Assembly (NCBI GenBank): GCA_965365225.1
Contig: CBDUAV010000004.1
Location: 963-64,962 of the forward strand
Direction: 5' to 3'
Length of the DNA: 64,000 nucleotides
Source of the DNA: an uncultured Ignavibacteria bacterium
GTDB taxonomy: Bacteria; Bacteroidota; Ignavibacteria; Ignavibacteriales; Ignavibacteriaceae
The position numbers are program-made. Below, in pieces: positions 27,001-39,000 of the stretch. Position 1 is the stretch's first letter, and every line of letters starts with the position of its first letter.

Positions 27001-30000
27001 TTGAAAAAGCCAAAAGAGGCGATAAAAAAGCATTATCAGAAATTGTAAAAAGGTATGAGCAGACCATTTATAATTTTTCCTTTAAAATTTGCCGGGACAA
27101 AAACAAAGCCGAACAGATAATGCAGGAAACTTTTTTCAGCATGGTAAAATCTTTACATCAGTTTGATCACAACTCAAAACTATCTACATGGCTTTACAGA
27201 ATAGTATCAAACCACTGCCTTATGATGGCACGAAAGCTAAAGAGCCGTCCCTTTGTTTCATTTGATGATAATGATAACCTTTTTGAAGAAAAATTTACTG
27301 CTGATTGGAGTTCTTTACCTTACAAGAATACAGAAAATGAAGAACTCAAAAAAATATTGGATCAAGCGATACAAAAGTTAGAACCCGAATATAGGATGGT
27401 TTTTTTGCTTAGAGATGTGGAAGGTTTATCAACCGAAGAGGCAGCAAAGGTTACTGATCTTTCAGTCGCCGCTTTAAAATCGAGATTGCATCGTGCAAGA
27501 GCCTTTCTTAGAAAAGAACTTAATGAGGCATTAAGCAAATGATTGAAGAAAAAAAAATCAGTTGCCAAGATGTAATGCAACATGTTTGCGAAAACCTAGG
27601 CACAGAATTAAATACGGATAAGTGCAAGGAAATAAAAGAGCATCTCGAGATGTGTCCGCATTGTCAGAATTACTTCAAATCTGTAGAAATTACAATAGAT
27701 TGCTACCGCAAGTACAATGTAGAATTGCCACCCAATGCACATAAAAGATTAATAGATTTTCTAGGATTAGAAGAATAGAAATTTCAATAACAGTTAGTCG
27801 AAATTAATTTAAAACATTAACAAATAAATTAAGAGAATAAAATGCCCTTATTTGAATATAAATGTTCTGATTGCAGTACGAAATTTGAAGTACTTCATAA
27901 ATCTACTTTAAAAGAAGAAGAAGTGACTTGCCCAAACTGCAAATCTGCTAAAAACAAAAAATTGTTTTCTTCATTCAGTGCATCAGTCTCTTCAGGCTCT
28001 GATTACTCTGCAGGAAGTTGTGCCACAGGAAATTGCGGTATACCGGATAGTTCGCCGATGGGTGGATGCGCATCTGGTATGTGCGGTTTAAACTAAGTAT
28101 AAAATTAAAATACATAGTTTACTATTTATTTCACTTGAAAATTTTAGAGACTTGAGGAGAGAATTTACTTATCCTAAATAATTAGCTGATTTTACTATTC
28201 AGTTAGTTCATTTAAGCGTAGCTTTGATTTTTTCTTTGCATATTTATCTCTAAAATCTCGTTCCGGCAGTTCTAATATTTTTGTAAGAGTGCTAATTTCT
28301 TTTTGCTCATCATCTATTTCCCTGTAAACTAGAGAAAGATGAAAAGTAGCAATTACTATTCCTGGTTTAAGTTCTAGAGCTTTAAGTAAATACTGTTCTG
28401 ATTCTTCAAAACTGCCATCCGGCACATCACCAAAAAAAGTATTTGCAAAAAGTCTTTCGAGCCAGCTTAAACTTGCAATTTGCCGATGATAAATTCCTAA
28501 AATTATATACGGTAAATAATCGTTTGGATTTCTTCTGATCGATTCCTCGGCATTATTTTTTATCTCATGGGCAAGTTTAACTTTTTCATTTCCTCCTTTA
28601 TACAATGCAACGTTTCCGTAGGACCATGCGAGATAAGAGTATACCTTTGCACTATCCGGGAACTTGTCTCTGAGTTTTAGTGCATACTCCAATGCTTTAT
28701 TAACTGCAACTTCGGCTTTTTCTTCATTTCTATGTTCGTAATATTCTTCCCCTAGATCGTTGTAAACTCTCGTAAGTTTTTGCAAAACTTCGAACGCATC
28801 AGGTGAGATATTATAAGCTTCTTTGTATTGTTTAACAGCAGCTTCAAAATTAAACCTTGCGTATAAAGAATCTCCCTTCAAAATGTAATCTTTGTATTCA
28901 TCTGCTGCGAAATTGACACCGAATATAAAAAGAATAAAAGTTACAATTAGCTGAAATAACATATTTACCCCTTAAATTAAACAACATTCAATTGTGAAAT
29001 TATAAATTTTAGACAAAATATTAAACTGGCTCAGCTCATATTTAATCTGAGCACACAGTATAGGGAGTAGAAAAAATTGAAGATAAAATGCCTTAAAAAT
29101 TTTTGTTTACATATTAAATTTTGGTATTAGTTAATAGTTCTGTTCTAAATAAGTTGCAATTTATCTTCTATTTTATAAATTCCACCTTAGATAATTAATA
29201 ACTTTGAACTAAACAGCTTCGTTAATAGCTTTGCAAAGGAATTTCAGACTTTTTAAAGCTATTCGAACATTAGTGTGTTGTAGTAATCTTAACATTAGAT
29301 CAACGAGTGTTTTCAAAGGTTTATATGATTGAATCTCTACAGTATTTACTTTACAAAGCTTTTCTTAGATATTCGCTATTAACAGCATCATGCTTACTTC
29401 AGCCGATCTCAATCCATACCACCATATTAAATAAAGTGCAAATCCAGTTTCGCAAAGAATTGAAAGAGCCTTAATAAAGGAGTTTACTATGAAAATAATT
29501 CTACAGATTCTTTTCTCTATTCTATTTTTAATGTATAATTTTTCTGTCGCGGGTACAAAAGGAAAAATAGCCGGACAGGTTACCGATGCTACCACAGGTG
29601 AAGCACTTCCGTTTGTGAATGTTATAATTATGGGTACTAGTTTAGGTGCTGCTACGGATATCGATGGATTCTATTCTATTCTTAATGTATCGCCGGGAAC
29701 TTATACAGTTAAAGCATCTGCAATAGGATATAACAGCGTTTCTGTTCAAGAGGTCCTTGTGTCTATAGATTTAACAACTACTGTAGATTTTCAACTAACT
29801 TCAACAAGTGTAGAATTAGAAGGAGAGGTTGTTGTTATTGCCACACGAGATTTAATCAGAAAAGACCTTACCTCAAGCACCTCAATAATCGGAGATGATG
29901 TAATCTCACAGTTACCTGTTACCAATATTGGTGATGTGCTCCAACTTCAAGCAGGAATAGTTATATCGCAAGGTGGCAATATTCATATTCGCGGTGGAAG

Positions 30001-36000: not shown

Positions 36001-39000
36001 TTGGAACTGCAAACGATGTCAGTTCATTATACTGGAATCCAGCAGGTGCATCGCGGAGCAATACAAATGAAGCAATGTTTTCACACTCAAGATGGTTTGC
36101 AGATATAAATTATAATTGGGCAGGTGCTATGTTAAAACTTGGGGGCGCTGGAACTGTCGGTCTTAGTATTACTTATTTAGATTATGGTGATATTGAAGTT
36201 ACAACTTTGGCTGAACAGGATGGTACCGGACAGTTTTTTTCTGCTCACGATTTGTCTATGGGGTTAACATATGCGTATAACCTTACGGATAGATTTTCAT
36301 TGGGTGGAACCGTGAAATATATTCAGCAAAAAATATGGAATTCATCAGCGAGCTCTATAGCCCTTGATTTAGGTGTCCTTTTTCATTCTGATATTTATGG
36401 TTTAAGAATAGGTGCTACAATAACAAACTTTGGGTCTGCAATGAGTTTGGATGGAAAAGATCTATTGGTTCAACATGATATTGATCCTAATAGTAGTGGA
36501 AATAATGACCAAATCTTAGCAAATCTGCAAACTGATGATTTCCCGCTTCCTCTTACTTTTAGAATAGGATTAGCGATGGATGTAGTAGATTCAGATGATC
36601 ACAGAATTACATTGGCTGCCGATGCTCTTCACCCAAATGATAATGATGAATCTGTGAATGTAGGCATGGAGTATATCTTTAGCAATTTAATCGCATTCAG
36701 AGTTGGCTATAAATCACTATTTTTAGATAATTCTGAAGAAGGTTTAACTGCAGGTGTTGGTCTAAATTATGATTTTACATCAGATTTTGGAGTTAGAGTA
36801 GATTACGCTTATCAAGATTTTGGCGTTCTGGATTATACTCAGCATTTTTCATTAGGCATTAAATTTTGACCTCCAAAAGAGTTATTTTAATCAAAAATAT
36901 TTCTATATTTAAGAGAGGCAAAATTAAACATTAACAAATTTTATCAATAATTGAAGGAGAAATCTATGAGAAAATTACTACTCATTTCTTTCTTATTGCT
37001 CCTAACAGGAATTACATTTGCACAGCCAAAGGATATTCTTGTTAACTGGGAATGTGATATGGAAATTGAAATTCTTTCGGGGAGATACAATACAGCTGAT
37101 ACAGTTGCAGCCCGAGGAAATTTTAACGGTTGGGGACGTCACGATCTCGTCCCGAGTGTACTGGATCCCAATAAATATGTAAGTGAAATGCCGGACACCA
37201 TACTTCAAGCTGAAGTGGGTGATACTATAGTCGCTTATAAATTTTTCTACACACCCAATACATGGGAAGGTGGAAATGACAAACTATATATCTTAACTCA
37301 GGCTGATTATGATGCTGGTTCAGCTACTATTTCACGTCCATTTAATGATGGAACATTATCCACCGTTACAAACCAGGATTCTGATGTTTTATTCCAGGTT
37401 GATGTAACTGGTGCAATATCAGCAATAAACAGTATGCCATTTCCTGTCATAAACACAGTTCATATGGCTGGTGGAACAGTACCACTTCAGTGGCCCAATT
37501 TAGGCTGGCCAAGCAGTGAAATAGGGCTAATGATTGAGTTAAACGATGCTGGAATGGATGGTGATAAAGTCGCCGGTGATAACATTTTCTCAACCACAGT
37601 TACATTTCCTGCTTATACCACATTTAATGTTAACTATAAGTTTGGTATCAATTACGGGGATAGTGTAAATAATGGTGGTGGTAATGATAACGAAAACGCT
37701 ATTGGTGCTAATCACATAATTAACCTTTTCGCAAGTTTATACTATGCCGAAACTTTAGATACTTTTGGCATTATGGGAGAAAAGGACTTTGTAACCGATG
37801 TAGAGGATATTACAGAATCATTACCAACAGTTTATTCTCTAGATCAGAATTACCCGAATCCATTTAACCCTGCAACCATGATAAACTTTAGTGTTCCTAA
37901 AGAAGAGTTTGTTACATTAAATGTTTACAACTCAATTGGACAACAAGTTGCAACTTTGGTTAACGAGAGTAAAACTGCGGGAACATATCAAGTAGATTTC
38001 AATGCAGCTAATCTTTCAAGTGGAATTTATTTCTACAAGATTACTGCTGGAAACTTTACCGAAACCAAGAAAATGATCCTAATGAAATAATCCTTTGGGA
38101 TTAAATGATTAAAATTTGAAAGCCCCCTTTTGCGGGGCTTTTTTTATTGGTGTAAAATATTGGTAAGCTGTTTTTTTAAATTCTGTGCATTTGGAAATTC
38201 AGGTTTGAGACTAATGCATTTATCAATGAATTTAAATGCATTTTTGTAATCTTCTTTTTGAATATATGCGCCTGCAAGGTTGTAAAAAACTTGTGCATCG
38301 GAATTATCGTATTTAATACTTTCAAGAAAAAATTTAATTGCTTCTTCAATACTTCCTTTATTAAGTTTTATGTTCCCTATCCATTTAGCTGAAAATGCAT
38401 CGGGAGTTTCTTTGTATCTCTTATTAAGAAATATATATGCAAGATCAAATTCTTTAATATTTATTAATTGAGAAGCAGCATAGTCGTGATCGGTTAATTT
38501 AAAGGGATATTGAGAGACTAAAACATTGTACTCTTTTGCAAAATTATTGTAATCCTCTTGTGCAAGGTAATAAGTTGCCGCTTCTCGATGAGCTCTTTCC
38601 CAATTTAAATTTTCTATAGCTGTTTTATAGGCGAGTGAATCAATTTTATCATTCAATTGTAGATTATTTACAAAAGAAAAATCGGGACTTTCTTTGAATG
38701 GCCAATCATTAAGTAATCCTATTAATCTTATTTCAGAAATAATTGAATCTAACCTTGAAAAAGCAAAATTACTAATAACAATACTATCCTGTTTTATATC
38801 TGAAATCTCCATCGGTTTATCATTCGGCAGAAAGCCATTTTGCCTCATTGCTTCAAAATAGATTTTACCCATAAGCAAATATCCAGAGAGCGAAGGATGC
38901 AAGTGATCGACAATTAAATTATTACCAACTATTCCATTTTGGCTGGCACTATTAAATATCGAATCAACATTTACCAATCCACAGTTATGTTTTAAGGCGA

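Follow-up and report, generated by a model that had tools for sequence, protein, structure and literature searches.

Polymer capture in Bacteroidota is explained by SusC/SusD, which genome surveys use as markers of glycan use; a strict polysaccharide utilisation locus (PUL), by the PULDB criterion, is an adjacent susC/susD pair together with carbohydrate-active enzymes (CAZymes). Sediments, hot springs, bioreactors and the dark ocean are home to abundant degraders from the Ignavibacteria, Calditrichota, KSB1, WOR-3 and Marinimicrobia. Here we analyse a 64,000-nucleotide stretch of DNA (hereafter, the window) from an uncultured Ignavibacteria bacterium (contig CBDUAV010000004.1), in which the gene for a TonB-dependent receptor is followed on the same strand by genes for an 1180-amino-acid (aa) predicted secreted protein, here called the giant, and for an outer-membrane barrel of the PorV/PorQ family.

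The retention of secreted proteins on such barrels is known from type IX secretion (the T9SS). The C-terminal domains (CTDs) of PorU and PorZ are not cleaved and remain bound to PorV and PorQ (PMC10202324, PMC11285876), and a review proposes that cognate PorV-like barrels shield such CTDs from cleavage (PMC10202324). Uncleaved CTDs are also longer, at 96 aa in PorZ and 108 aa in PorU as against 67-88 aa in cleaved ones, and they carry an extra hairpin after strand 5 (PMC11285876). For cargo with a type B CTD, the gene for a dedicated PorP/SprF-like barrel adjoins the cargo gene and the barrel anchors the cargo at the surface, as in SprB-SprF (PMC10202324).

We consider, with moderate confidence, that the receptor-giant-barrel trio is a three-gene outer-membrane module for nutrient capture and import. 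The best explanation of its parts would be a system of the SusC/SusD type in which the place of the surface lipoprotein is taken by a protein that the T9SS delivers and a barrel anchors. As in the SusC/SusD systems of Bacteroidota PULs, a TonB receptor with a carboxypeptidase-regulatory-like N-terminus adjoins a predicted surface partner, and trios have secreted glycoside hydrolases, importers of sugar across the inner membrane and regulators as neighbours, with trio subfamilies that track the CAZymes. Unlike SusD, the partner has no SusD Pfam match, is mostly beta, measures 1000-1200 aa and has no lipobox (0/142 relatives); its surface exposure, presumably via the T9SS, would also differ from the export of a SusD lipoprotein. 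Unlike PULs, the trio has a third obligatory gene, that of the PorV/PorQ-family barrel. Because there is no SusD and the window copy has no adjacent CAZyme, though paralogous trios sit among CAZymes, we call the arrangement only PUL-like.

The trio resembles PorZ-PorQ and PorU-PorV in joining a large secreted protein with a longer CTD to a PorV/PorQ-family barrel that would retain it (PMC10202324, PMC11285876). It differs from them in the giant's body, which is unrelated to theirs, in a barrel that is no equivalog of PorV or PorQ, and in that the unit is always joined to a TonB-dependent receptor, is multi-copy and is locus-specific. Full-text searches, from which subscription journals were mostly absent so that an earlier description is possible, returned no account of a trio of TonB receptor, large protein and PorV-like barrel, and the genome papers of Caldithrix abyssi and Melioribacter roseus are silent on it. 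On our best reading, what is new here is a TonB-dependent receptor whose dedicated surface partner, from a large family without a curated model, is delivered by the T9SS and anchored to a barrel of its own.

A conserved receptor-giant-barrel gene unit

The trio and a fourth gene occupy four forward-strand open reading frames (ORFs) at 29489-32293, 32311-35853, 35868-36869 and 36951-38090, with intergenic gaps of 17 nt, 14 nt and 96 nt, the last one measured to an ATG at 36966. A first-pass annotation of the window had given these coordinates, strand and gaps, together with several peptides and a terminator, and ORF calling, translation and hairpin scans bore out all of them. The features are:

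29489-32293 (+): TonB-dependent receptor, 934 aa, from Pfam domains and synteny
29825-29845 (+): TonB-box-like motif E113-T119 of the receptor, read by eye in an 11-receptor alignment
32311-35853 (+): giant, 1180 aa, predicted secreted, from a large family without a Pfam model
33199-33240 (+): first acidic, Ca-loop-like cluster FDGIDNDDD of the giant, aa 297-310, with invariant Asp, by pattern only
33271-33630 (+): subgroup-specific beta-sandwich insert of the giant, aa 321-440, from a gapped alignment and predicted strands
33499-33855 (+): main acidic loop region of the giant, aa 397-515, with lowest entropy and invariant D/E/G
34711-35520 (+): variable beta-sandwich region of the giant, aa 801-1070, with highest entropy and many gaps
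35536-35853 (+): family-specific C-terminal domain of the giant, aa 1076-1180 and stop codon, from a tail profile
35868-36869 (+): PorV/PorQ-family outer-membrane barrel, 333 aa, from NF033709
36966-38090 (+): accessory T9SS cargo, 374 aa from the ATG, from TIGR04183
38118-38142 (+): intrinsic-terminator-like hairpin closing the operon, stem and T-run
28963-29488 (+): upstream intergenic and promoter region, 526 bp, no Rfam match and only the ribosome-binding site conserved
26949-27542 (+): ECF-type sigma factor with Sigma70_r2 and r4_2 domains

We surveyed Ignavibacteria with one genome per species, keeping the best 80 loci from 448 stretches that encode a giant relative; neighbours were counted by tblastn with the window proteins, over loci with enough flanking DNA. 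The receptor gene lies directly upstream of the giant gene, on the same strand, in 72/72 loci, and the barrel gene directly downstream in 73/73. By contrast, a homologue of gene 4 is found downstream in only 35/61. The conserved core is therefore receptor-giant-barrel, with gene 4 as an accessory, and of the four-gene locus described at first pass it is these three genes that are invariant. The same order recurs in 8/8 distant loci (L081-L088); the gene arrangement of giant, barrel and transporter, noticed first in the window alone, is thus syntenic in near and distant relatives alike.

The family to which the giant belongs is large. It has >3,442 close homologues, of which the best 120 are 63-96% identical to it, carry no Pfam domain, are all named 'hypothetical protein' and, where labelled, come from Ignavibacteria-type metagenome-assembled genomes; across the Ignavibacteria loci, giant identity is 55-84%. 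An exhaustive profile search yields 4,299 clusters at 50% identity (E <= 1e-3), 668 of them at E <= 1e-30, and the source names of members include candidate division KSB1, Calditrichota, WOR-3, Marinimicrobia and Ignavibacteria. The family has no Pfam or NCBIfam model, and its distant members, too, lack a Pfam model for the shared regions. A shorter giant paralogue of ~1030-1040 aa is present in Ignavibacterium, Rosettibacter firmus and Melioribacteraceae.

Sequence divergence is shared among the three genes. Full-length identity of the L081-L085 proteins to the window copies is 36-39% for the receptor, 35-39% for the giant and 45-50% for the barrel, and in an 11-locus set the pairwise-identity matrices agree, with r = 0.94 for receptor-giant, 0.82 for receptor-barrel and 0.74 for giant-barrel. 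In the same set the L088 barrel is 40% identical to the window barrel; it is the most divergent of the barrels, with 33-42% identity to the others. Ignavibacteria paralogues are no nearer to the window copy than copies from other lineages. Because the matrices agree and paralogues are no closer than other lineages, the whole trio appears to have been duplicated, or transferred, as one unit.

The receptor, SusC-like in its N-terminal architecture, consists of a signal peptide, a CarboxypepD_reg domain (aa 27-115; CarbopepD_reg_2, 68.7 bits), a Plug (aa 125-221; PF07715, 48.4 bits with a cut-off of 23.9) and a large barrel (OMP_b-brl_4, PF25183, 44.5 bits with a cut-off of 30) with a terminal F. 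It thus has the plug and the large C-terminal barrel by which a TonB-dependent receptor is recognised, and in a profile match its plug region resembles those of the solved receptors PqqU and YncD (E 6e-7). Unlike SusC/RagA proteins, it scores 73.3 bits against TIGR04056, with a cut-off of 368.25, and aligns to model positions 2-216 of 981 only. Between the N-terminal domain and the plug lies EVVVIAT (aa 113-119), a candidate TonB box, judged by eye from the known consensus; in an alignment of 11 trio receptors this position is a conserved E-[VI]-[VIT]-[VI]-x-[AS]. Across lineages, trio receptors keep both this TonB-box-like motif and an aromatic residue at the C-terminus. A second, shorter receptor of 741 aa, with CarboxypepD_reg and Plug domains, is encoded elsewhere in the window (51574-53799, - strand), where it adjoins a TPR protein (53812-54600, - strand) and has no giant or PorV-like gene beside it. 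Therefore, not every receptor of such architecture is part of a trio.

Gene 3 encodes a member of the PorV/PorQ family (NF033709, 244.3 bits with a cut-off of 90; Pfam PorV, 47.8 with 27) that also matches solved PorV (6h3i_F, E 1.5e-9), as the first-pass annotation had read it, and is not a FadL- or OmpA-type protein. It falls below each of the equivalog cut-offs, at 121.9 vs 220 for PorQ (NF033711), 89.2 vs 250 for PorV (NF033710) and 80.1 vs 325 for PorV2 (NF052325), scoring highest against PorQ.

Gene 4 opens with a TTG at 36951 (379 aa), and the product of its in-frame ATG at 36966 (374 aa) begins MRKLLL. The protein has two N-terminal beta-rich modules, with a choice-of-anchor X segment (aa 195-229; NF041940, 34.5 bits), and a canonical type A CTD (aa 301-376) that scores above the curated cut-offs of both TIGR04183 (50 bits vs 23) and PF18962 (49.5 vs 27), so that its earlier identification as T9SS cargo stands. 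Its N-terminal 276 aa have no Pfam match even at E <= 10. In two orthologues of the window copy, both from Melioribacteraceae, T9SS cargo is likewise encoded directly after the barrel: in L010 it is a 790-aa protein whose C-terminal half is 48% identical to gene 4, with weak X25/CBM20-like matches, and in L059 a protein with a GHL10 glycosidase-like domain, fn3 and a CTD. A further T9SS cargo, with an Exo_endo_phos (nuclease/phosphatase) domain and Por_Secre_tail, is encoded in the window at 56058-57932 (+); this supports a working T9SS in the organism.

Sequence elements around the operon are simple. The hairpin at 38118-38142 has 9 pairs, 5 of them G-C, followed by a T-run, and ranks top of nine such sites in the scanned region. 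The 526-bp region in front of the receptor had been described as a leader, and its size was right. It matches no Rfam family at gathering score, and comparison with 9 close relatives limits its conservation to the AGGAG ribosome-binding site before the ATG. We therefore reject a structured or regulatory leader 5' of the receptor; the region is an ordinary promoter and intergenic stretch. Further upstream, a homologue of the ECF sigma factor, 70-80% identical, is found 1-7 kb from the receptor in about 19/80 loci, a weak association that makes this factor a possible regulator. Because Pfam finds no STN domain in the receptor and no anti-sigma factor adjoins the ECF gene, trans-envelope signalling is not indicated.

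The giant and its C-terminal domain

The giant begins with a signal-peptide-like sequence, MKKLAILLLFLSFGIGLYA, without a lipobox. It matches no Pfam family at E <= 0.1, and its sole NCBIfam match is faint, aligning residues 1111-1175 with the last 60 positions of PorZ (E 0.036). A PDB sequence search with the full-length profile returned nothing from a narrow profile and only a marginal Fn3 motif from a broad one, and the window ORF set contains no paralogue of the giant. AlphaFold2 (AF2), given 142 diverse homologues that are 38-84% identical to the window copy, produced a mostly beta model (pLDDT 86.7, pTM 0.78), superseding one built from 22 close homologues (pLDDT 48.6). With this model, Foldseek finds no global structural relative in the PDB. 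The top match is PorZ (E 1e-6, probability 0.99), but with TM-scores of 0.10 and 0.14; the others are generic multi-beta-domain surface proteins and adhesins, including an Epf adhesin domain, a Bap BSP domain and a large-adhesin repeat, at TM <=0.23. A SusD homologue is rejected, since the giant has no SusD/RagB Pfam match, is mostly beta in the AF2 model where SusD is alpha-helical and TPR-like, and lacks a lipobox. The size of the protein and the porU-porV-like gene order had also prompted us to consider a PorU-like sortase, which we reject as well: there is no match to a C25 peptidase, a PorU model or a gingipain-like fold.

Conservation along the giant, from column statistics over the same 142 sequences, is concentrated in a core (aa 41-320 and 441-800, including the acidic loops and an FN3-like module) and in the tail (aa 1081-1180). 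The D-x-D-x-D-G-type acidic clusters noted at first pass are indeed present. DGIDNDDD occupies residues 301-308, NDAIDNDLDGLVDEN about residues 399-413 and DNNIDEDQDWDPDFDDVGQDGLGPDD about 453-478, and the main acidic loop region (aa 397-515), mostly confident coil in the AF2 model, contains NDAIDNDLDGLVDEN, DNNIDEDQDWDPDFDDVGQDG and GEGDGIPTQGEPNFGITDPDESDQIGLT. The most conserved stretch of the protein is aa 441-520 (entropy 0.9-1.06 bits). D304, D306, D308, D449, E450, D457, D468, G470, D472, D504, E507 and D509 are invariant in the alignment; the acidic residues are therefore no chance feature. From the DxDxD(G) pattern the loops are probably stabilised by Ca2+. Membership in TSP3 or another curated Ca-repeat family, in contrast, is rejected, as no model scores and Pfam TSP_3 is silent. 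Between the two acidic loop regions lies an insert (aa 321-440), gapped in about 70-80% of the alignment and modelled as strands at 331-395 (pLDDT >85); because most members are gapped there, it is specific to the orthologue group of ~1180-aa Ignavibacteria proteins.

The distal part of the protein is the most variable. Residues 801-1070 have the highest entropy in the giant (2.0-2.5 bits) and many gaps, and are a candidate substrate-specific part. Distant relatives carry other or additional sequence here, such as the Reg_prop propeller repeats at aa 1286-1307 of P0182; another relative, P0243, has a BNR-type module at its N-terminus.

Acidic Ca-type loops and FN3-like motifs are common in adhesins. 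The presence of both in the giant, together with its Foldseek matches to adhesins and multi-Ig surface proteins (Epf, Bap BSP, large-adhesin repeat), raises the alternative that it is a T9SS-anchored adhesin or surface-layer protein whose linkage to the receptor reflects co-regulation, with no substrate hand-over. We consider this quite unlikely. All of the adhesin matches have TM <=0.23. Adhesins evolve fast, but the core of the giant is 55-84% identical across the class and dozens of its W, Y, E, D, R and Q residues are invariant across lineages in the 142-sequence alignment. The gaps of 14-17 nt here, the invariant gene order and the receptor-giant correlation of 0.94 argue instead for a functional unit.

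[quoted passage not shown] It reads VVPNPYIV...GVYVYVV...GKFALIK, and nearly all full-length relatives end VVPNPY...GRGER...W.L...A.G.Y.Y.V...GKFA[VI]IK. At E <= 0.1 the window tail has no match to the type A sorting domain (TIGR04183 / PF18962). When the tails of 50 relatives were scanned singly, sub-threshold matches appeared to CHU_C in 29/50 (best E 2e-5), to FlgD_ig in 23/50 and, at E <= 1, to Por_Secre_tail in 9/50 (best E 4e-4). Searched against the window ORF set, a profile of the tails recognises gene 4's type A CTD (E 9e-6), and its two best PDB matches, both weak, are the CTDs of PorU (6za2, E 0.0056) and PorZ (5m11, E 0.052). The PorZ alignment reaches the last residue, with RFAVIR against GKFAIIK, and the segment W-x-L-x-x-K-D-G-x-x-V-A-x-G-x-Y aligns with the region of PorZ in which the extra hairpin has been placed (PMC11285876). 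Singly weak and mutually consistent, these matches are consistent with a divergent T9SS CTD that is closest to the uncleaved CTDs of PorU and PorZ. The C-terminus is therefore CTD-like at the level of the family, through its matches to PorU, PorZ and gene 4, while the tail of the window giant on its own passes no curated threshold.

With type B CTD proteins and their PorP/SprF barrels the trio shares the logic of a dedicated barrel gene beside the gene of its cargo, and CHU_C (a type B model) is the commonest weak match among these tails, all below threshold; unlike them, the trio has a barrel that scores as PorV/PorQ family and no gliding-motility genes in its neighbourhood. Because the closest relatives of the tail, the CTDs of PorU and PorZ, are both uncleaved and barrel-bound, the barrel would be a stationary anchor, as in PorQ-PorZ, rather than a shuttle. 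The earlier proposal of a cargo-shuttle pair thus keeps its dedicated PorV/PorQ-family barrel, but kinship with uncleaved CTDs points away from shuttling. An anchor role is also supported by the presence of one barrel per trio, including tandem trios in KSB1, and by the 142 giants, which lack a lipobox and whose short relatives swap the tail for a type A CTD.

About ten such shorter relatives keep the N-terminal domain of the giant and have a canonical type A CTD at their end, and NCBI annotates at least one of them in this way. They are ~930-1120 aa long (P0143, P0178, P0186, P0202, P0214, P0223, P0241, P0253, P0260 and P0268, and the protein at 11559-14408 of L081) and share the N-terminal domain plus part of the distal region; most end SGIYFY...KKMxLxK, not GKFAxIK. 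They may be released or lipopolysaccharide-attached versions of the binding domain of the giant.

The recurrence of PorZ and PorU among these matches raises a further alternative, that the trio, or at least its ~1180-aa copy, is T9SS or surface-assembly machinery, a PorZ-PorQ-like attachment or sorting sub-complex and not an importer. The sole curated match of the giant is the C-terminus of PorZ, PorZ is the top Foldseek match at probability 0.99, the tail profile finds the CTDs of PorU and PorZ, the best equivalog score of the barrel is PorQ, and the window copy is highly conserved and without CAZyme neighbours. We nevertheless regard this as unlikely. At TM 0.10 and 0.14 there is no global similarity to PorZ, and a PorZ equivalog is rejected, since NF052228 scores 12.5 bits vs 260 and aligns to the tail only; there is no C25 peptidase domain. 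Further, there are several paralogues per lineage, in catabolic loci, and the unit always includes a plugged receptor with a TonB-box-like motif. We know of no attachment complex that contains a plugged TonB-dependent receptor.

Gene neighbourhoods and the direction of transport

Six of the eight distant trios are embedded among glycoside hydrolases (GHs) and sugar transporters, with a LacI regulator in two. In L081 (WOR-3), a large alpha-amylase/GH57 protein and a sugar ABC importer lie alongside the trio, and one of the short giant relatives with a type A tail sits between giant and barrel. L082 (Calditrichia) has LacI, GH94, a glycoamylase with carbohydrate-binding module (CBM) 30, and GH2; L083 (Ignavibacterium sp.) an SSF importer, CBM9 cargo, GH16, GH3, GH5 and GH2; and L085, from the named species Rosettibacter firmus, an amylase, SSF, CBM9 cargo, a ROK kinase, three GH3 and GH5. 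In L086 we found a protein with a faint CBM20 match and an amylase of 1,294 aa that carries a T9SS tail, and in L087 a sugar ABC importer, LacI, GH94 and glycoamylase, with ExbB/ExbD/TonB nearby. L084 (KSB1) carries two trios in tandem at 1-12151 of a 16-kb contig, and an FG-GAP/FlgD_ig protein is encoded between the barrel of the first and the receptor of the second. Several of the CAZymes at distant trios carry T9SS tails. Trio subfamilies track the enzymes beside them: amylase in L081 and L086, GH94 and glycoamylase in L082 and L087, and GH3/GH5 in L083 and L085 (with GH16 in L083).

In L088 (7315-19374) the genes of a full Opp-type ABC importer (SBP_bac_5, two permeases, two ATPases) come after the trio on the same strand, which suggests that a peptide or other non-glycan may be the substrate of this subfamily. 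A nitrilase-family protein and an aminotransferase follow the importer.

Near the window copy lie the genes of the ECF sigma factor and of a TPR protein, and three SGNH/TPR genes that converge on the trio operon. The last encode tandem paralogues of ~630-660 aa at 38144-43981 (- strand), each an SGNH/GDSL hydrolase with a large insert and C-terminal TPR; homologues are equally placed in many related Ignavibacteria loci, and they could be carbohydrate esterases. Some 6 kb downstream of the locus, a SurA-like chaperone with two peptidyl-prolyl isomerase (PPIase) domains adjoins a carbamoyltransferase (44274-46124 and 46138-47982, both +); a PPIase gene also lies near the L082 Calditrichia trio, possibly by coincidence. 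Elsewhere in the window, a 454-aa ORF without a Pfam family (22537-23901, - strand) lies between an FAD-linked oxidase and a 304-aa ORF.

Because its paralogues lie mostly inside sugar-degradation clusters, the trio is probably a counterpart of SusC/SusD in nutrient capture. The likeness of logic to SusC/SusD suggested at first pass is borne out by paralogous trios in clusters of CAZymes, transporters and regulators in several lineages, but not beside the window copy, which has no adjacent glycoside hydrolase.

The direction of transport bears on a different alternative. Oar of Myxococcus xanthus, a TonB-dependent transporter, shares the carboxypeptidase-regulatory-like N-terminal domain of the trio receptor. 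A TonB-dependent barrel with a plug and, like the trio receptor, tied to a secreted protein, Oar is needed for secretion of the protease PopC (PMC6434023). The receptor could accordingly work outward, exporting or releasing the giant or neighbouring cargo, with the barrel as an accessory. We consider this very unlikely. Unlike Oar, the trio has a T9SS-type tail and a PorV/PorQ-family partner of its own, which already account for export and anchoring, and the genes beside the distant trios encode importers and enzymes of intracellular catabolism, implying inward flux. Transport would therefore be inward, from the TonB-box-like motif and from the importers and intracellular enzymes of paralogous loci.

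A proposed mechanism and its meaning

We propose that the giant would be exported via Sec and the T9SS to the cell surface, where its PorU/PorZ-type tail would go uncut and stay on the dedicated downstream barrel, so that the giant is anchored as PorQ holds PorZ. With its acidic-loop beta core and variable distal beta-sandwich, the giant would bind a polymeric or oligomeric substrate and present it to the SusC-like receptor, thus contacting both the barrel and the receptor, and the receptor would import the substrate with energy from TonB/ExbBD. Accessory T9SS cargo may add binding or degradation at the surface, in the window through the 379-aa CBM-like protein and elsewhere through amylases, GH16, GH5 and the GHL10 protein. 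The data themselves show the order of the genes, the families of receptor and barrel, the kinship of the tail with T9SS CTDs, the inheritance of the three genes together and the catabolic surroundings; export route, tail retention, protein contacts, calcium binding, and the direction and identity of transport are inferred. For the window copy, our best guess at the substrate is a glycan.

Several observations weigh against a capture-and-import module. Beside the window copy there is neither a glycoside hydrolase nor a sugar transporter nor a LacI regulator. With 55-84% identity across Ignavibacteria, the giant is unusually well conserved for a surface protein that binds substrate, which would fit a housekeeping or machinery role as well. 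The giant has no recognisable carbohydrate-binding module or SusD-like fold, with Foldseek matches that are generic adhesins at TM <0.25, and its own tail lies below every curated T9SS threshold, with weak PDB matches for the profile (E 0.006 and 0.05). The distant contexts number only eight, and because one of these trios (L088) precedes an Opp-type transporter, the cargo is not always a glycan. Finally, Melioribacter roseus has been reported to have a SusC/SusD/SusE operon (genome paper), so the trio need not replace SusCD.

Beyond the window, we raise tentatively, as a possibility somewhat short of an even chance, that several FCB lineages outside the Bacteroidota (Ignavibacteria, Calditrichota, KSB1, WOR-3 and Marinimicrobia) share an undescribed outer-membrane 'utilisome'. 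In it, a beta-rich protein of ~1000-1200 aa would serve as the substrate-capturing lid or partner of a SusC-like transporter, delivered by the T9SS and held by an uncleaved CTD on a PorQ-like barrel, with paralogous trios specialised for different glycans or peptides. The T9SS and a cognate barrel would then do for this protein what lipoprotein export to the surface does for SusD. Because cultured carriers exist (Rosettibacter firmus; Ignavibacterium album is named among the sources), the hypothesis is directly testable. Should these lineages use the trio instead of, or alongside, SusCD, the family of the giant, with 4,299 or more sequence clusters and neither a Pfam nor an NCBIfam model, would gain a testable role, and the trio would be a third case of a cargo that stays on a PorV-like barrel of its own, following PorZ-PorQ/PorU-PorV and type B CTD/PorP-SprF, here tied to nutrient import. 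PUL prediction tools keyed to SusD would then overlook a large share of the glycan-uptake loci of these lineages.

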